Below are positions 57,521-64,000 of a stretch of DNA of 64,000 bases, piece after piece. The position numbers and the translations under genes are program-made. Source of the DNA: a virus (taxonomy: Duplodnaviria > Heunggongvirae > Uroviricota > Caudoviricetes); the IMG/VR virus record IMGVR_UViG_3300015615_000629, positions 496,711 through 560,710 of that record; one strand, 5' to 3'. The first letter of the stretch is position 1. Each line of letters starts with the position of its first letter. The notes under the pieces were generated by a model. The model was not told where the DNA came from. It saw only the letters and a program-made list of their open reading frames with translations, and made no database searches.

Positions 57521-57940
57521 ATGAAACTATTCCTAAAAGACGACCACAAAACAGTTTATATCAAAGAAAAACATTGGAGAACCGTCCTGTGGGAAAACAG
57601 AACCCAATCTTATGTTTTAATTCCAAGATGTTTTATGATCTTCTCACAAAACTTGTTCTTTTTCGGCTATTTAAGCGATGAAAATCTCTGCTATAGAATA
57701 GGCACTAACTACTATTTTTATCGAAACTTCATAGAAGACAACAACCATGCATTCAGGTTTCAAATTTGTTTGGGCAGAACAGATTTTTTAGATTTCCAAG
57801 AATGCCTAGACTATTTCTGGAATTCTACCTTTTATAATGATTTCCCACTGGTATATGGGGAAGACCAGTCAATCAAGACGCCATTCAAGAAACTCCTAGA
57901 AGATATTGATAAAATAAACGAAAAGACACTCGCCGGATAG
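57521..57940 (+). CDS. E2-like paralogue 22 (divergent)
   Basis: HWRTVL ... IPRCFM ... QICLG ... LDYFWNSTF; sister of paralogue 20. Confidence 0.55.
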   Translation: MKLFLKDDHKTVYIKEKHWRTVLWENRTQSYVLIPRCFMIFSQNLFFFGYLSDENLCYRIGTNYYFYRNFIEDNNHAFRFQICLGRTDFLDFQECLDYFWNSTFYNDFPLVYGEDQSIKTPFKKLLEDIDKINEKTLAG

Positions 57941-58246
57941 ATTTTCTGAAAAACCGAATTTTTTATGGAACAAAACCCCTATGTGTATGAAACAGATGAA
58001 TATCCAGAACCTTCTCAACTATTAATCTTCTTAGAATGGACCCTTTTCTATATTCTCGTTCTGGGCCTAATCATCATTTCCCCCAGAATATGGCTAAAGA
58101 TAATTAAGGATATATTGGGAATTCCTTATTAAGGGACTCCTAAGTTATTTTCTGAAAAACCGAATTTTTAGTTTTGCAACATTTATGGGACTCCAAAACC
58201 TAAAATGTGGTTTTTCAGTTTACGAGATTCTACTTTTGCAACATTT
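57941..58246. repeat. short direct repeats at the end of the plus-strand block
   Basis: ATTTTCTGAAAAACCGAATTTTT at 57941 and 58147; TTTTGCAACATTT at 58172 and 58234. Confidence 0.75.
57965..58132 (+). CDS. possible small membrane protein (about 55 aa)
   Basis: Read manually: MEQNPYVYETDEYPEPSQLLIFLEWTLFYILVLGLIIISPRIW...; end approximate. Confidence 0.35.
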   Translation: MEQNPYVYETDEYPEPSQLLIFLEWTLFYILVLGLIIISPRIWLKIIKDILGIPY

Positions 58247-58438
58247 TTAGTTTAAATCTGGGCGGGTCTGCAGTTTGGAGGGAGTTTAAAAGAAAAGGCG
58301 GCTTAGTCATGGCTCCGCCCACCCCCCATAGGAACCCCCACCCCACAGGGAATTTTATTTTAATTTTTTGATTTTTATTTCTGCAACAAATAAGGTACAG
58401 GTTAATTATACCTTATTGTTATTAGGTAGGGGTTAACC

Positions 58439-58675
58439 CTACCCTTCGTCATAGTCCTCGGGGTTCGCTTCGGCATCCTCTGCCTCGCAGGCGTCGTAAT
58501 GCTCCTGCTGGAGTACATACCGCACGAGTTCGGCCTTGCGTATGCCGAAGTACATAGCCCCTACGTTATCGTAGAGCAGGTCCAGTAGTTCCTGTCGGCT
58601 CATACGTGAGAGTTCTACCCCACGCGGCGACTTGACATCCACGGGCACAGCAACTGGTTGCAATCGGAAGTTCAT
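58439..58675 (-). CDS. small cassette ORF (78 aa)
   Basis: Motif plus AGGAGG RBS upstream. Confidence 0.65.
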   Translation of the reverse strand: MNFRLQPVAVPVDVKSPRGVELSRMSRQELLDLLYDNVGAMYFGIRKAELVRYVLQQEHYDACEAEDAEANPEDYDEG

Positions 58676-58763
58676 CGTCCTGTCCTCCTGCCCATTAAGG
58701 TACAGATAAAGGATACTATTAACTTATCTGTACCGTTACGTTATCTTATAGCCCCGTAGGGCA

Positions 58764-58922
58764 TTAGGTTGGCTGCCCCTGGGCTTTGGCAATGGCGTCC
58801 ACTGCTTTACAACTCCAATCCCACAGCAAATCGTGGTAGTAGTCCGATAGGCCAGCCCCTTTCAAGGCTTCGTCGATTGCGTTCACGCCTTCCGTCAACA
58901 CTGCCACCATATCTTCGTTCAT
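58764..58922 (-). CDS. small cassette ORF (52 aa)
   Basis: Read manually, MNEDMVAVLTEGVNAIDEALK...; motif plus GGGAG upstream. Confidence 0.55.
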   Translation of the reverse strand: MNEDMVAVLTEGVNAIDEALKGAGLSDYYHDLLWDWSCKAVDAIAKAQGQPT

Positions 58923-59041
58923 GACTGTTCTCCCTGAGTAGTCGCCCGACAGTCATTAAGGTACAGATAAAGGATACTATTAACTTATCTGTACCCTTCC
59001 GTTACTTAAAAGGAAAGGCAGGGTTGCCCCTGCCTCCCTTC

Positions 59042-59410
59042 TCAGAAGGGGATATCACCGCAATCGCAGGCAGCCTCAGCGGCTACCACGTTGACTGGTA
59101 AGCCTCGCACGCGGGCAAAGACATCGCTTCCCCCGTAAACGCCTAGCCGCTGGTTAACGGCGTCAGCGGTTTGAAGGGCAGCCTCGGGGGTAACGTAAGC
59201 ACTGTGGAAGTCCTCCCGCTCGCCCATGCAGGCATCGGTCGAGGGGCAATACATCGTGGCGACGATAACGACGACGCAGCGGCCCTTGGCCAACTCTTGG
59301 GCGATACGTGGGTCGTTCGGCTCGCGGGTCATGCACGACCAATCGAAGGCGTTTCGCAGTTCGCTTTGCGGATTGTAATCCCGTTCCTCTTGCTCTTGAA
59401 TGTTGAACAT
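59042..59410 (-). CDS. cassette ORF (122 aa)
   Basis: Motif plus GGGAG upstream; hairpin downstream. Confidence 0.65.
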   Translation of the reverse strand: MFNIQEQEERDYNPQSELRNAFDWSCMTREPNDPRIAQELAKGRCVVVIVATMYCPSTDACMGEREDFHSAYVTPEAALQTADAVNQRLGVYGGSDVFARVRGLPVNVVAAEAACDCGDIPF

Positions 59411-59544
59411 GGCTTGGCTCCCGTTTTAATCTTTCCCTTAACCCACCAATAAAGGTACAGATAAAGGTTGGGGATTAAATTAAATGCTCCGGAAGGTTTG
59501 AGTTCCCTTCCGGAGCAGGTTTGCGGAGCGAGCCGCAGGGAGGT

Positions 59545-59805
59545 TTATTCCTCGTCGCCCCCGTAGCAACCGTAGTCCTCATCGGTTCCGAAGCCGGCCG
59601 AGGCCATGCCGGTATCGAAATCGCCGTCCATGTCTTCGCCTGGAAGCATCATGTAAAACGTGGGGTCTTCGCCGTCCTCCTCCGTGTCGTTCAGTTCGAG
59701 GTCGAGTTCGGGCAATTCGAGTTCGCCATCGAATTCGCTTGTGTCGTCCCCGATTGGCCCGTCGAAGTCGAGGTCAAAGTCAAGTGAGTCATCGCGTTCG
59801 CTCAT
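59545..59805 (-). CDS. highly acidic cassette ORF (86 aa)
   Basis: Start trimmed to MSERDD behind GGGAG; 33 of 86 residues are D/E. Confidence 0.6.
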   Translation of the reverse strand: MSERDDSLDFDLDFDGPIGDDTSEFDGELELPELDLELNDTEEDGEDPTFYMMLPGEDMDGDFDTGMASAGFGTDEDYGCYGGDEE

Positions 59806-59920
59806 GTTCATCTCCCGTTGGTTGTTCCCTTGCCACAACAGATAAGGTACAGATAACAATTGAGATTAAATAAAAACTCCCCCGGAGGCCATGCCTCTAC
59901 GGGGGAGTCGGGCAGGGATT

Positions 59921-60157
59921 TCAATTTGAGTCATCGATTTCGACGCAAGCGACTGCGATTTCATAAACCATCTCTTGGGCGATTTCATCCTGCTTATCGC
60001 ACCAATCTTGGTAAGCCCAATCGGTGTGGTCGGCGAGAAGGTCCATCTCGTAATAGCGGCGGTCGAGAGCGATACCATACGCAATCTGGTCGCTGGCAGC
60101 CTCTTGCTCCTGAATGAGATTCAAGTTGAGCGAATCGCGGAGTTGATTGCGGGCCAT
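59921..60157 (-). CDS. cassette ORF (78 aa)
   Basis: Start trimmed to MARNQL behind GGGGAG; motif upstream. Confidence 0.6.
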   Translation of the reverse strand: MARNQLRDSLNLNLIQEQEAASDQIAYGIALDRRYYEMDLLADHTDWAYQDWCDKQDEIAQEMVYEIAVACVEIDDSN

Positions 60158-60207
60158 CTCTTGTCTCCCCGTTGATTGTTCCCTTGCCACAACCAATTAG
60201 GTACAGA

Positions 60208-60498
60208 TTAAATTAGGCAAAGTCTGCCATCTTCGCCGACATGGAGGTTGTCCCCTTGTCCCTTGACAACGCCGACGACTTCCATTGTGGCCTCTCCCGT
60301 GGTGGTGGCCGTAATACGGTTCAGCAAGGCATGGGCCGTGTTAGACAGGTTAATCGCCGTCCGCAGCCGTTGTTCCATGCCCTCCACATCGGGGATGCGG
60401 CTGACTTCGCCGTTGCTGTCATCAATCGAGTCAATGTAGCTCGATTCGTCGGGCGTAATGGTAATCGCCACGAGAAACGTAACTGATTCGTTGGTCAT
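60208..60498 (-). CDS. cassette ORF (96 aa)
   Basis: Motif plus AGGAGG upstream. Confidence 0.65.
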   Translation of the reverse strand: MTNESVTFLVAITITPDESSYIDSIDDSNGEVSRIPDVEGMEQRLRTAINLSNTAHALLNRITATTTGEATMEVVGVVKGQGDNLHVGEDGRLCLI

Positions 60499-60601
60499 TG
60501 TTCTGTCCTCCTGCCAGATAAGGTACAGATAACAATTGAGATTAAATAAAAACTCCCCATAGGGTAGGCCGATTAGGGCCGCCTTGGGGAGTCGCAGGGA
60601 T

Positions 60602-60733
60602 TTAACCCTGCCCGAGCGATTGCTTTACGTGCTTGCGAACGGCTCGATGGGCGAGTTTCTTACCATACGGCCGCAGATGTTTGCAGTAACCGTATGCGGC
60701 GTGAGCCTTGGTAGCGTTTGGGGTCTTTCGCAT
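60602..60733 (-). CDS. basic cassette peptide (43 aa)
   Basis: Read manually, MRKTPNATKAHAAYGYCKHLRPYGKKLAHRAVRKHVKQSLGQG; motif plus AGGAGG. Confidence 0.6.
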   Translation of the reverse strand: MRKTPNATKAHAAYGYCKHLRPYGKKLAHRAVRKHVKQSLGQG

Positions 60734-60765
60734 TGGTTGGTTCCTCCTGACCAATTAGGTACAGA

Positions 60766-61047
60766 TTAAAAATCCCCGATAACCTCCAGAACTTCGGTAG
60801 CCTTGGCCCTGATATCGCGGAACACTGAGCGAACCCATGCGACAGTGTCGTCGAGGTCGGGGGCGTTGCTGTCGAACCATGAATGGCGGCTGCCTGACAT
60901 GTCATTGACACAAGAGCGAAAGGTATGCTCCTTGCCATCCTTGAAATGAATGAACCGAATGAAGCCCATTGGCTTGGACTGGTCGGTGATACTGATGGGA
61001 AAGTGCTTCTCGATGCCTGGGTGGCGGCCGGCTTTTAACTTTGCCAT
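60766..61047 (-). CDS. cassette ORF (93 aa)
   Basis: Motif plus AAGGAG; stop codon lies inside the next motif. Confidence 0.65.
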   Translation of the reverse strand: MAKLKAGRHPGIEKHFPISITDQSKPMGFIRFIHFKDGKEHTFRSCVNDMSGSRHSWFDSNAPDLDDTVAWVRSVFRDIRAKATEVLEVIGDF

Positions 61048-61155
61048 TGTCTCATCTCCTTACCGCAATAGGTACAGATAAGGATAATTTTTAGATAAAA
61101 AAAACTCCCCTGGAGCGGCCACGAGCCGCGTCAACAGGGGAGTCGGGCAGGGATA

Positions 61156-61263
61156 TCAGTTGAGCCCGAATCGTTTGTTAAATCGGACGCTGCGGTGTTT
61201 AGCGTACCACTTACGTCGTGCTTGCCCTTTGAACCAACGTCGTTTTCGTTTTCCGTCTGGCAT
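61156..61263 (-). CDS. Arg/Lys-rich cassette peptide (35 aa)
   Basis: Read manually, MPDGKRKRRWFKGQARRKWYAKHRSVRFNKRFGLN; motif plus GGAGG. Confidence 0.6.
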   Translation of the reverse strand: MPDGKRKRRWFKGQARRKWYAKHRSVRFNKRFGLN

Positions 61264-61295
61264 GGCTTGGTCCTCCATGCCAGATTAGGTACAGA

Positions 61296-61568
61296 TTAAA
61301 AGTTTGGCATTTCCTCCAGTGTTTCCTTGACAGCCCGCATCGCGGCATGAACGCCTTGCGAATAGGCTTTTACATAGTTTTGGGCGGCTTTACGTCCGAT
61401 TGCGGTGTGAAGTTCTCCCCCTTGGTGCCAGTCGGGGTATGTCTGCACATCCGCTTTACGAAAGAAACGGTATCCTCTGGCCCCTTTACGGCCGGCACTT
61501 CCGAGCCAAACCGTATTGGTTGCGAAGCACAACCCAACTTCGCGTGCTGCTGCTTCAAGTTCTTTCAT
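61296..61568 (-). CDS. cassette ORF (90 aa)
   Basis: Start trimmed to MKELEAA behind AAGGAGG. Confidence 0.6.
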   Translation of the reverse strand: MKELEAAAREVGLCFATNTVWLGSAGRKGARGYRFFRKADVQTYPDWHQGGELHTAIGRKAAQNYVKAYSQGVHAAMRAVKETLEEMPNF

Positions 61569-61586
61569 GGTGTCCTCCTTGCCCAA

Positions 61587-61796
61587 TTAGGTACAGGTTT
61601 GCCGGCCGCGTGCTTCGCTGCGGTAGGCTTCGTCGAATATCGCTTGCAATTCCCTTCGGTCGGCTTCGGGTTGCGAGCGTCGATACTCGCCAAACCAGCG
61701 AATTTCTTCGGTGCTACGGCTGTTATCACGTTGCTTTACCGCACGGCCAGCACGCTCACCAGAGGCGGTTGCGGTTTTAATTTGTTCGGTAGTCAT
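61587..61796 (-). CDS. cassette ORF (69 aa)
   Basis: Start trimmed to MTTEQI behind AGGAGG. Confidence 0.6.
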   Translation of the reverse strand: MTTEQIKTATASGERAGRAVKQRDNSRSTEEIRWFGEYRRSQPEADRRELQAIFDEAYRSEARGRQTCT

Positions 61797-61833
61797 TTGT
61801 TCTGTCCTCCTGCCCAATTAGGTACAGATTAAG

Positions 61834-61912
61834 TCCGTCGGGCAGGAATCGAACCTGCACAGCATTGCGGGTGGGTTACGGCCACTTGGGCTCGCCATTG
61901 CCCAGCCGACGG
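61834..61912 (-). tRNA. tRNA-Tyr(GUA)-like gene, non-canonical, no encoded CCA
   Basis: CCGTCGG/CCGACGG acceptor stem plus A73; D stem GGGC/GCCC with GG; anticodon loop CC-GTA-AC; T arm GCAGG-TTCGATT-CCTGC. Confidence 0.75.
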
Positions 61913-62010
61913 TTATTACTTACATCTTTTAAGGTACAGATAAGGTTTTTATTTAGATAAAAAAACTCCCCCGGAGCATTGCTCTACGGGGGAGTCGGGC
62001 AGGGAGATTG

Positions 62011-62193
62011 TTACGCCGCCTCGCGGTAACTCTTGGTGGCGTGGATTGTCTTACCCGTTTCCTGGTCGATTAGCCGCACGGCCACGGCTTCCCCGAGGGT
62101 CTTGGCCTCCTGGCGTGCTTGGGCTTCGCGGTCGGCGTCAAACGTGGTGGTGTCCATGCCCTTGGCTTGCAGAATGAAACGCTCACTAAACAT
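62011..62193 (-). CDS. cassette ORF (60 aa)
   Basis: Start trimmed to MFSERF behind GGGAG. Confidence 0.55.
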   Translation of the reverse strand: MFSERFILQAKGMDTTTFDADREAQARQEAKTLGEAVAVRLIDQETGKTIHATKSYREAA

Positions 62194-62257
62194 GACTTTT
62201 CTCCCTTTTCGTTTTGCCCTTTGCCCCTTGATACCAATTAAGGTACAGATAAGGTTT

Positions 62258-62437
62258 CTATTCGGTGGTGCCGATTTCGATAGCACGGATTAGTGCTTGT
62301 TCCCTCTTGCCAAGGATAAGAGCATCCTTCATGGTTTCCTGCCCTGCGATTAGCATGGTGTCTAGGGCCTTAGCAACCTCCTCGCGAGTCGCCTTATTAG
62401 GAGCGACAACAGTGACGACTAATCTTATGGTTTTCAT
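62258..62437 (-). CDS. cassette ORF (59 aa)
   Basis: Read manually, MKTIRLVVTVVAPNKATREEVAKAL...; no motif directly upstream. Confidence 0.45.
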   Translation of the reverse strand: MKTIRLVVTVVAPNKATREEVAKALDTMLIAGQETMKDALILGKREQALIRAIEIGTTE

Positions 62438-62544
62438 TTGACGCTCTCATTTGCGTTTTAAGCGATTGGATTAAGATATGGTGTCTTTTTACCTTTTCTT
62501 AATTGAAACGCTTGTAATGCACGCTGCGGGCTTTTAATGGGGTA

Positions 62545-62856
62545 TTAGCACCAGCAGAGTTCGTGGCCGCCGAGTTGTTTGACCTTTTCGCTGATTTGGT
62601 TAAGTTTGTTGGCAACAGCGGATTTATTCCAGCCCATTGCCTGAAATTCTTTCACCAATTGGTCCAGTTCGGCGTCGAACTGTGGCACGACCAGATCAGC
62701 GGAAAAGTTGAATAGCTGGTGACTTCCCAGATATTTACACAACCCTTTACCACCGTGAAGTTTAGCGAGCCATGCTTCACCCTTAACGAGCATGGCAACG
62801 ATAATTTCACGCTGACGGTCGTTCTGGGCGTCTATTGCTGCGAAGCGGTGTGTCAT
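62545..62856 (-). CDS. cassette ORF (103 aa)
   Basis: Start trimmed to MTHRFA behind AAGGAGG; two motif copies upstream. Confidence 0.6.
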   Translation of the reverse strand: MTHRFAAIDAQNDRQREIIVAMLVKGEAWLAKLHGGKGLCKYLGSHQLFNFSADLVVPQFDAELDQLVKEFQAMGWNKSAVANKLNQISEKVKQLGGHELCWC

Positions 62857-62959
62857 TTGGTCCTCCTTGGCCAATTAGGTACAGATAAGGTTTCTGTTAA
62901 GGTACAGATAAAATAAAAAAGCCCTAGAGGTGGTGGTCCCTCTAGGGCTTGCAGGAGGC

Positions 62960-63229
62960 TTAGGCAGCCTTACGGGGCTTGGACTGGCTGAGGAACTTGC
63001 TGGCTTGTCGGCGGGTGGCGGGCTTGCCGGCGAGCCAATTGCGGAAAGGCACGGCGAGCGGGTGGTCTTTGATGGTTCCCTCGGCGGTCACAAGGTCAGC
63101 GGGGGCAGCGGCTTCGCGGAGGGAGATGCCTTTCTGACTTTGCGTGGGAACGTAGTCAAACTTACGCAAGGCAGGCCGGAGGTTGTTGGCCGGAATCGGG
63201 GGGAGCGGACGAATCACAACGGCTGACAT
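62960..63229 (-). CDS. basic cassette ORF (89 aa)
   Basis: Motif plus AGGAG upstream. Confidence 0.55.
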   Translation of the reverse strand: MSAVVIRPLPPIPANNLRPALRKFDYVPTQSQKGISLREAAAPADLVTAEGTIKDHPLAVPFRNWLAGKPATRRQASKFLSQSKPRKAA

Positions 63230-63277
63230 GTTTTCTCTCCTGCTTGTGGGTTACTTGAACGTTGAATTAGGTACAGA

Positions 63278-63457
63278 TTAGAGTTTCAGCGGCGTGTCGC
63301 TGACATAAGTTATTTGCATGACTCGACTTGCGTAAACGGTCGCCTCGTGAGCAACGGCAACAAAGGCGGTTGCTTGAGTTTTGGCAGCGACTTTATGTTC
63401 GACGCTTCCCCCGTCACGAAAAGCAAGTCGGAAAGTGTATTCGTTGTAGTCTCCCAT
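63278..63457 (-). CDS. cassette ORF (59 aa)
   Basis: Read manually, MGDYNEYTFRLAFRDGGSVEHKV...; stop codon is part of the next motif. Confidence 0.5.
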   Translation of the reverse strand: MGDYNEYTFRLAFRDGGSVEHKVAAKTQATAFVAVAHEATVYASRVMQITYVSDTPLKL

Positions 63458-63550
63458 GCTGTTTAAGGTACAGATAAAGTGGTTTTATAAATAAAAAATG
63501 CCTCGGAGGTGGTGGTCCCTCCGAGGCGGCTAGCGGCCCTTGGGCCGTGT

Positions 63551-63865
63551 CTATCCTTGATGTTCGATTTGCAGCGGGGGCAGCACGCGGACAGTGACGG
63601 GGAGCGGGGTTGGAGCGGGGAATACGCCCCTGCAGAACGCTGACCCTCTTGGAATATGGAGTTGGGTTCCGCCCACATCCATAAAAATGTAGTTTCGGCT
63701 GTCGCGGTGCTTGAAATGCACGTACCCTTCGGGGGTGACTTGCATCAGCATAAACTCACCAGCATCGGCGAAACGGTGAGCCCCATCGCCGCCATCGACT
63801 TGATGGCTTTCGAGCAAGGCCGCGAAATCTTTGAAGTGCTCGTCAACTTCGACTTGAGTAATCAT
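63551..63865 (-). CDS. cassette ORF (104 aa)
   Basis: Start trimmed to MITQVEV behind GGGAG; motif upstream. Confidence 0.6.
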   Translation of the reverse strand: MITQVEVDEHFKDFAALLESHQVDGGDGAHRFADAGEFMLMQVTPEGYVHFKHRDSRNYIFMDVGGTQLHIPRGSAFCRGVFPAPTPLPVTVRVLPPLQIEHQG

Positions 63866-63904
63866 TGGTTTCTCCCTTTCCTTTCTGCCCAATTAGGTAC
63901 AGAT

Positions 63905-64000
63905 TTAACAGCCGCAATCGAGCGTGCCGTTATTGGTTACGGCGTTGGCGACGGTAGCCCAAGCGAACTCGAACACTGGCCCCGTGTGGAGGGTGACGGG
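63905..64000 (-). CDS. partial cassette ORF running off the window edge
   Basis: Open frame ending ...TNNGTLDCGC-stop, with the stop inside motif copy 19. Confidence 0.4.
   Translation of the reverse strand, partial: PVTLHTGPVFEFAWATVANAVTNNGTLDCGC

Follow-up and report, generated by a model that had tools for sequence, protein, structure and literature searches.

A GC-rich array of small genes led by a repeated CTGTACC motif in a 572-kb T4-type phage genome: a likely hyperplastic cassette region with a putative phage-specific promoter

The DNA analysed here, referred to as the window, is a stretch of 64,000 nucleotides (nt) corresponding to positions 496711-560710 of the single-contig 572,167-bp IMG/VR virus record IMGVR_UViG_3300015615_000629. 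Towards its end, from 58394 to 63902, 19 co-oriented cores of a motif of the form (A/T)AyCTGTACC lie on the minus strand and serve 17 small open reading frames (ORFs), one tRNA-Tyr gene and one non-coding tail. The array likely forms the densest and most GC-rich end of a hyperplastic region, about 100 kb long, of a T4-type megaphage with a circular 572-kb map; in this region cassette units on a phage-specific promoter would be shuffled between relatives by way of repeated modules. The units are given below in window coordinates, all on the minus strand, with the core being CTGTACC and lengths in amino acids (aa); pI is the isoelectric point, dN/dS the ratio of nonsynonymous to synonymous substitution rates and L038 a contig of a related phage.

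63905-64000 (-): next upstream cassette, 3' end of an ORF of 99 aa by gene call (genome 560615-560914).
63551-63904 (-): unit 1, core 63896-63902, predicted start 63886, Shine-Dalgarno (SD)-led ORF 63551-63865 (104 aa), no Pfam/PHROG match.
63278-63527 (-): unit 2, terminator 63500-63527, core 63467-63473, leaderless ORF 63278-63457 (59 aa) with its ATG 9 nt after the core.
62960-63276 (-): unit 3, core 63270-63276 overlapping the upstream TAA, ORF 62960-63229 (89 aa, pI 11.3).
62545-62950 (-): unit 4, terminator 62919-62950, tandem cores 62901-62907 and 62878-62884, ORF 62545-62856 (103 aa).
62258-62437 (-): ORF of 59 aa, the only one without a motif of its own, with a weak paralogue at genome 564761-564940.
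62011-62248 (-): unit 6, core 62242-62248, ORF 62011-62193 (60 aa).
61833-62005 (-): unit 7, terminator 61961-62005, core 61933-61939, predicted start 61923, tRNA-Tyr(GUA) 61833-61912.
61587-61827 (-): unit 8, core 61821-61827, ORF 61587-61796 (69 aa), its final TCT-stop being the next motif.
61296-61596 (-): unit 9, core 61590-61596, ORF 61296-61568 (90 aa; dN/dS 0.29 against L038).
61156-61294 (-): unit 10, core 61288-61294, very basic ORF 61156-61263 (35 aa; 40 aa from the leaderless ATG at 61278).
60766-61153 (-): unit 11, terminator ~61093-61153, core 61071-61077, ORF 60766-61047 (93 aa).
60602-60764 (-): unit 12, core 60758-60764, basic ORF 60602-60733 (43 aa).
60208-60600 (-): unit 13, terminator ~60550-60600, core 60522-60528, ORF 60208-60498 (96 aa).
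59921-60206 (-): unit 14, core 60200-60206, ORF 59921-60157 (78 aa).
59545-59921 (-): unit 15, terminator ~59872-59921, core 59846-59852, extremely acidic ORF 59545-59805 (86 aa).
59042-59540 (-): unit 16, hairpin ~59490-59540, core 59454-59460, ORF 59042-59410 (122 aa, 6 Cys).
58764-59038 (-): unit 17, terminator 59013-59038, inverted motif pair 58959-58996 (a hairpin containing the putative promoter; repeat family D9), ORF 58764-58922 (52 aa).
58439-58735 (-): unit 18, inverted motif pair 58698-58735, ORF 58439-58675 (78 aa).
58290-58402 (-): unit 19, last core 58394-58400, A-rich non-coding stretch, G-rich hairpin and terminator hairpin with a T-run.

Matches to ATCTGTACCT with at most one mismatch numbered 26 in the window against 2.45 expected, a count reached by none of 100 shuffles, and 19 of these were on the minus strand between 58393 and 63904; the plus-strand copies at 58726 and 58987 are the inverted partners of minus-strand copies. 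Genome-wide, the core was found 144 times on the minus strand and 11 times on the plus strand, running from window 58394 through the record start to genome ~35 kb and more sparsely to ~75 kb. In the 17 kb of genome 555.1-572 kb 51 motif copies are present, with a density of 3.4 per kb in genome 555.1-561 kb, as compared with 4 copies in the other 475 kb (80-555 kb). More than 100 genes over 100 kb, large genes included, are preceded by the motif. Searches of IMG/VR with the exact 16-mer ATCTGTACCTAATTGG and 14-mer GTTAATCTGTACAT gave single chance matches only.

When the copies were aligned on the core, information content was limited to TTAAyCTGTACC and the five A/T-rich bases after it, with no conservation upstream of -21 and no analogue of a -35 element. 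A purine was observed exactly 9 nt after the core in all 19 window copies and in 125 of the 144 genome copies, with a pyrimidine just before it in 115 of the 144, and in 41 of them an ATG opening an ORF of at least 30 codons stands at this very position (leaderless). The predicted leaders of the window copies are 0-39 nt long and many start with AGGAGG, which would place the SD sequence at the very 5' end of the transcript. Six to eight of the 19 window copies follow an intrinsic terminator (G+C-rich hairpin plus T-run) at a distance of ~20 nt, two stem-loops contain the motif itself (the inverted motif pairs), and repeat families of 41-76 nt span terminator, AT spacer, motif and SD. The distance from motif to SD or ATG is variable (9-48 nt). 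Genome 555.1-561 kb, which reaches slightly beyond the window end, holds 20 copies, and 8 of these touch or overlap a TAA stop; other motifs supply the final codons of the ORF before them (ICT-stop or TCT-stop). In three places (window 61587-61598; L038:1380-1394; L164:630-645, the latter two in contigs of relatives) A[TC]CTGTACCTAA of the next putative promoter, read in frame, makes up the last three codons and the stop. Within genome 555.1-561 kb a T precedes the core in 18 of the 20 copies and SD-led starts number 12 versus 4 leaderless ones; further upstream, neither the AACCTGTACC form nor leaderless starts are outnumbered any longer. Sites resembling sigma70 promoters numbered 2 in the array against 5.0 +/- 2.3 expected, none of them at the motif, the consensus used for this comparison being one that may not be the host's.

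The fixed purine spacing, the leaderless ATGs, the terminators upstream and the tRNA downstream are the geometry from which the motif is best read as a single-block promoter, with a recognition block at about -21 to -10 and a fixed start site.

On the minus strand of the window 17 complete ORFs of 35-122 aa and one ORF cut by the window edge were found, and the public gene calls for an independent contig comprise these same ORFs. In the called frames G+C content at third codon positions (GC3) is higher than at second positions (GC2). Measured between relatives ~81% identical in DNA, the 122-aa ORF has a dN/dS of 0.25 and the acidic 86-aa ORF one of 0.20 (against a 100-aa variant in contig L032). 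By these measures of codon position, agreeing gene calls and selection (dN/dS 0.2-0.25), the cassette ORFs are real genes. Searches of Pfam and PHROGs with the 17 window ORFs and two replacement ORFs found in relatives returned no family, one sub-threshold match to DUF7059 apart, and an all-against-all BLASTP comparison showed the cassette ORFs not to be mutual paralogues, with the exception of one weak pair. The 5.6-kb array gave no match to GenBank phages by blastn in distant mode, and the cassette ORFs have no bacterial homologues. For the 122-aa ORF, the alignment and search for related loci in metagenome and viral collections yielded no confirmed locus, ESM Atlas look-alikes were at noise level (0.80) and the AlphaFold model was poor (pLDDT 61). 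The acidic 86-aa protein has a pI of 4.1, its 88-residue gene call containing 33 Asp/Glu; at the other extreme are two very basic peptides (35 and 43 aa). Among 10 larger motif-led genes outside the window, Pfam matches were obtained to DUF7168 and DUF2786 above the cut-off and to DUF6011 below it, none of known function. A role in host takeover or anti-defence is a reasonable prior for the cassette ORFs.

The tRNA-Tyr gene (61833-61912, minus strand) is the only tRNA-Tyr of the phage, is identical in contigs L037 and L038, has no ribosome-binding site (RBS) and begins 11 nt after the predicted start site. In a search of the island against Rfam no family exceeded the threshold, the tRNA-Tyr itself scoring 25 bits. 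Its predicted structure is non-canonical, with C1:G72, C33 in a CCGTAAC anticodon loop and a 3-bp D stem. A full bacterial-type tyrosyl-tRNA synthetase is encoded at genome 322976-324205 on the minus strand (TIGR00234, 396 bits), and the synthetase and the tRNA may form a private pair. A phage tRNA-Tyr under a strong promoter has been reported to counter retron-Eco7 (PMC11555353). Further solitary tRNA genes, for Ile-UAU, Lys-UUU and a CUA suppressor, lie in the motif block on the minus strand at genome 9294-9368, 13063-13135 and 30802-30894 respectively, and stand apart from the large tRNA arrays of the genome.

At the distal end of the array, unit 19 marks both a sharp GC boundary and a convergent junction with an E2-like array. 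In the segment after the last motif (58290-58392) an A-rich stretch of 45 nt is kept in the 81%-identical contig L031 better than coding DNA is. Folding of this terminal non-coding tail was no better than that of shuffled sequence (z = -0.21) and no Rfam family was matched; the tail may encode a small RNA, or it may terminate transcription in both directions where the E2-like array converges. Across the junction, in window 57941-58260, two copies each of the 23-nt repeat AAAAATTCGGTTTTTCAGAAAAT and of AAATGTTGCAAAA were observed.

The countable details of the original prediction (copies, ORFs, tRNA, GC) all proved correct. It had described 19 co-oriented copies in 5.5 kb, which are the 19 minus-strand copies between 58393 and 63904, about 17 ORFs of 35-122 aa of which none was recognisable, a copy before a tRNA gene lacking an RBS, stop codons built into the motif, and coding DNA that is GC-richer than the rest of the window, borne out by values of 0.50-0.53 (58001-64000) against 0.36-0.42 elsewhere. 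It had also proposed scanning the full genome for the motif, where the strand bias of 144 to 11 was found. Its view that the motif acts at the level of transcription and does not resemble sigma70 promoters is upheld by the fixed 9-nt purine spacing, the leaderless ATGs, the positions after terminators and before a tRNA, and the scarcity of sigma70-like sites.

Contigs of relatives from other datasets were reached via the 122-aa and 96-aa ORFs, and among four haplotypes at least 7 cassette gains, losses or replacements were observed within ~4.5 kb. Contig L037, from a different dataset (JGI), is 99.98% identical to window 57850-62619, which includes 540 nt of the AT-rich side. Contigs L038 and L039 are 95-99% identical to the window with three whole-cassette differences: an unrelated 107-aa ORF stands in place of the 93-aa ORF of unit 11, identity ending two bases after the ATG and returning at the next TAAyCTGTACC; the terminator-promoter-SD-96-aa unit (unit 13) is missing, with the junction in a TAAATC microhomology; and the 52-aa unit (unit 17) is missing, with the junction inside a 56-nt direct repeat derived from the inverted motif pair. 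In L164 (~87% identical), where 2.4 kb hold nine motif copies, there are two additional cassettes (70 and 87 aa), and each of them is led by a motif. In L031-L036 (~81% identical) the 52-aa unit is likewise absent and a 67-aa ORF replaces the last ORF (unit 18), between conserved flanks formed by promoter-SD-ATG on one side and the terminal motif on the other. The replacement ORFs are also GC-rich (0.52-0.59). Judged from these junctions, the array is a recombination hotspot of the promoter-early stem-loop (PeSL) type, a point absent from the original prediction.

The genome encodes a major capsid protein of T4 type (Gp23 family, E 8.6e-85). Its tRNA genes, 40 in number, are confined to the minus strand, and no rRNA was found in it. 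Its record ends are identical over 141 bases only, and 141 is a common maximum k-mer size in assembly; the repeat is taken for an overlap left by assembly of a map that is circular or circularly permuted, so that the record start is arbitrary. The array itself passes position 64000 and this arbitrary start and goes on to genome ~10-35 kb. The claim that the block lies near a genome end thus fell away, a physical end being rejected on the same reading of the 141-bp repeat. That the segment might be chimeric had been raised as well; the independent contig L037 crosses the GC boundary at 99.98% identity, and L038 and L031 reach past the last motif; on the contigs available, a chimera is rejected.

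The GC jump is sharp at window ~58390, the distal (3') end of the minus-strand block, and decay is gradual upstream. The change is monotonic across a single transcription block of ~100 kb: GC3 drops (0.63 to 0.36), the motif becomes rarer (3.4 down to 0.27 copies per kb) and genes become longer (median 89 up to 179 aa). By region of the genome the values are as follows.

Region A, 555.1-561 kb: GC3 0.63, 3.4 motifs/kb, median ORF 89 aa.
Region B, 561-572 kb: GC3 0.57, 2.8 motifs/kb, median ORF 93 aa.
Region C, 0-10 kb: GC3 0.50, 2.2 motifs/kb, median ORF 103 aa.
Region D, 10-35 kb: GC3 0.45, 1.4 motifs/kb, median ORF 115 aa.
Region E, 35-80 kb: GC3 0.39, 0.27 motifs/kb, median ORF 179 aa.
Region F, 80-160 kb: GC3 0.36, 4 motif copies in 80-555 kb, median ORF 131 aa.

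G+C content at first codon positions and the share of Gly, Ala, Arg and Pro shift too, and codon selection alone is therefore not the cause. Candidate explanations are import, with later amelioration, from phages that have the same promoter and a higher GC content; gene conversion biased to GC and increasing with the density of linkers; and expression-linked selection. As a tentative and rather unlikely suggestion, the promoter could serve as an address label by which phages with a TGTAC-reading sigma take up and express each other's cassettes, the gradient being the footprint of this traffic; possible causes of such a footprint are the distal accretion of GC-rich donor cassettes with later amelioration, or gene conversion biased to GC according to the density of recombination linkers.

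Other readings of the motif were weighed against that of a promoter block. In one of them the motif would be bound by a phage activator (one acting by MotA-like sigma appropriation, or a dimeric DNA-binding protein) in place of a phage sigma and the host sigma-RNA polymerase drawn to a weak -10-like TAAT or TTAA. Such a sequence is present at about -9 to -6 in many island copies, two copies form inverted pairs reminiscent of operators, and T4-type phages use MotA/AsiA at their middle promoters (mentioned in PMC12276001). Many copies elsewhere in the genome, however, have GGAG or other sequence rather than TAAT after the core, and the block abuts the melting region as a -10 or extended -10 element does, unlike a -30 box; an activator is considered unlikely. 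The tight spacing of many cistrons without terminators, the frequent overlap of copies with stop codons and the short distance to start codons would also suit a signal acting in RNA, such as an endonuclease processing site or a translation signal separating the cistrons of long transcripts. Copies are nevertheless found directly behind strong intrinsic terminators, where read-through RNA would be scarce, as well as before a tRNA and before a non-coding tail; a pyrimidine-purine pair fixed 9 nt downstream, together with 41 ATGs at this very point, agrees with initiation, and a range of 9-48 nt to SD or ATG is poor for a translation signal, which makes an RNA signal quite unlikely.

The single-small-ORF cassettes and the whole-cassette differences between strains, with junctions near the motif, could on the other hand suggest an integron-like array in which the motif is a site-specific recombination site analogous to attC. 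Neither an attC palindrome nor a fixed crossover was found: junctions lie after an ATG, in the TAAATC microhomology or in the 56-nt repeat, where a recombinase would cut at a fixed position, and the 12-nt motif is mostly non-palindromic, has a fixed start-site geometry and precedes more than 100 genes over 100 kb, large ones among them. Integron-like recombination was rejected on the varying junctions and is very unlikely. The jump of 18 GC points within 1 kb at window ~58390 might also be explained by an assembly chimera or a recent foreign (host) graft. This is scarcely credible given that L037 crosses the boundary, that L038 and L031 extend past the last motif, that the phage's own motif recurs 51 times in the block's 17 kb, that GC declines gradually on the other side and that the ORFs are without bacterial homologues. 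The preferred reading stays that of exchangeable units on a phage-specific promoter.

Concerning the factor that would read this promoter, four sigma-like ORFs were found in the genome: one of 315 aa (genome 49441-50385, phrog_351, E 2.9e-16), within the motif-bearing block and with its own motif copy upstream; a 168-aa protein (143845-144348) with regions 2 and 4; an 89-aa fragment (153348-153614) in which region 2 alone is present; and a 184-aa ORF (377512-378063) with a weak match to gp55-type late sigma (phrog_234, E 1.7e-4), which probably serves late genes. No match to RNA polymerase was obtained with PF00940 (T7-type), PF00623 (beta', Rpb1 domain 2) or PF00562 (beta, Rpb2 domain 6), one Pfam domain per type, so that a polymerase of high divergence might be missed. 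Host core RNA polymerase with a phage sigma-like factor probably reads the promoter, and the 315-aa protein is the best candidate for that factor. Given four sigma-like genes and no detectable RNA polymerase, the promoter class may be middle and not immediate-early.

The 315-aa protein has 287 homologues at E <=0.001 among 1.8 billion representatives, and TGTAC-core motifs were seen on the gene strand in two of the seven contexts fetched, namely L040, with three copies of TTAATCTGTACAT in 5 kb against 0 expected, and L162 (a 21-kb piece of a 546-kb contig), with TTTAKTTGTAC six times, all on the gene strand, against 1.2 expected. A word-based homologue search with the 315-aa protein returned only itself, and searches for related loci with this protein and its homologue P0004 gave no confirmed locus; 26 of the homologues, once aligned, proved too divergent to serve as a search seed. 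In L161, L162 and L163 the sigma homologue lies in a conserved neighbourhood with an AAA+ (RuvB_N-like) ATPase, often accompanied by ArdC-N/MPTase-PolyVal, a UvrD-like helicase, an RNA ligase and an AcrVA2-like protein, which suggests that it belongs to a conserved early or counter-defence block.

Several points weigh against the proposed model. The promoter assignment is drawn from geometry, and in those copies elsewhere in the genome that have GGAG right after the core, a start 9 nt downstream would remove the SD. The assignment of a sigma is circumstantial. Three further sigma-like genes exist, and the five other homologue loci, 4 to 19.5 kb long, showed no TGTAC-core motif, none being obvious in the short contigs L041 and L042, while L161 and L163 show no TGTAC-type strand bias and the TTATCT contexts of L161 looked unrelated. 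The gene of the 315-aa protein itself carries the motif, and a separate trigger would consequently be needed, for which few near-consensus sigma70-type sites are available (31 in the genome at >=11/12 matches, unclustered, with a few on the minus strand in the motif block). Some junctions are microhomologies of 6-7 nt and not all are clearly due to homologous recombination. Finally, the GC richness and the gradient are unaccounted for by the cassette model.

The motif and its geometry, the terminators, the selection on the ORFs and the cassette differences with junctions in repeats are shown directly by the sequence; from these we infer the identity of the promoter, the sigma that would read it and the timing of expression, and the following mechanism is proposed. 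Each cassette would be a small transcription unit consisting of an optional intrinsic terminator, a promoter with TTAAyCTGTACC at about -21 to -10, A/T-rich sequence at -9 to -5 and a pyrimidine-purine at -1/+1, a very short SD-containing leader or none, and one ORFan, tRNA or non-coding tail. Host core RNA polymerase with a phage sigma-like factor, the 315-aa protein being the candidate, would read this promoter. The modules of terminator, promoter and RBS, repeated dozens of times, would double as homology for recombination, by which single ORFs would be inserted, deleted or replaced between related phages, as described for PeSLs.

The strain-level evidence indicates that cassettes turn over faster than point substitutions accumulate. 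A concrete and testable promoter model with four candidate sigmas is thereby offered for an uncultured megaphage, together with a pool of ~50 selected ORFans that are likely accessory or counter-defence genes. The compositional gradient may offer insight into how giant phage genomes are shaped by recombination or by imported genes, and two ideas that lack support, a genome-end location of the block and its possible chimeric origin, are corrected.

Among known systems, integron cassettes are alike in being arrays of single promoter-proximal small ORFs that vary between strains; unlike in integrons, the array has no attC-like imperfect palindrome and no fixed crossover, and nearly every cassette has its own putative promoter. 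Lambdoid morons are units of promoter, gene and terminator with deviant composition, and share with the cassettes the autonomous transcription of accessory genes and a composition unlike the rest of the genome; they are, however, single insertions with host-type promoters, whereas dozens of units would here depend on one phage-specific promoter. T4 late promoters (TATAAATA) are read by gp55 with gp33 and gp45. They resemble the motif as single elements without a -35 in a T4-type phage, but differ in sequence, and the motif serves ORFans here and not structural genes. The middle/late promoters of phiEco32, with AATGTA centred at -11.5, are read by host core polymerase with the phage sigma gp36 (PMC12276001). 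Likened by promoter element and genes alone, both have a short single element in the -10 region with TGTA after A/T and no canonical -35, and the divergent phage sigma there has its counterpart in sigma-like genes without a detected RNA polymerase here; the present motif is longer and lies a few bases further upstream.

The closest likeness in the array's organisation is drawn with PeSLs, composite terminator/promoter modules before ORFans in the hyperplastic regions of the T4-type phages RB49/phi1, T4/PST and KVP40/nt-1, where they are points of homologous exchange (PMC2839356, PMC4122927). As in PeSLs, the phage has a T4-type capsid and its ORFans follow repeated modules of terminator or stem-loop, promoter and SD; the module includes stop codons of the gene before it, the promoter is overlapped by some of the stem-loops, and close relatives differ by insertion, deletion or replacement of single ORFs with junctions in the modules. 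Composite repeats, an ORFan-rich T4-type setting and junctions in modules were accordingly all found in the array; a sigma70-consensus promoter was not, and the host's sigma may differ. PeSL promoters match host sigma70 with -35, -10 and AT-rich upstream sequence, whereas here a single 12-nt block at -21 to -10 without a -35 is seen. Unlike with PeSLs, many transcripts are predicted to be leaderless, and the array, 15 points GC-richer than the rest, belongs to a gradient that extends over 100 kb of the 572-kb genome. PeSL shuffling was previously described for sigma70 early promoters in T4-like phages of ordinary size; taken together, the array suggests as its novelty PeSL-type shuffling on a non-sigma70, probably phage-sigma-dependent promoter in a 572-kb megaphage.

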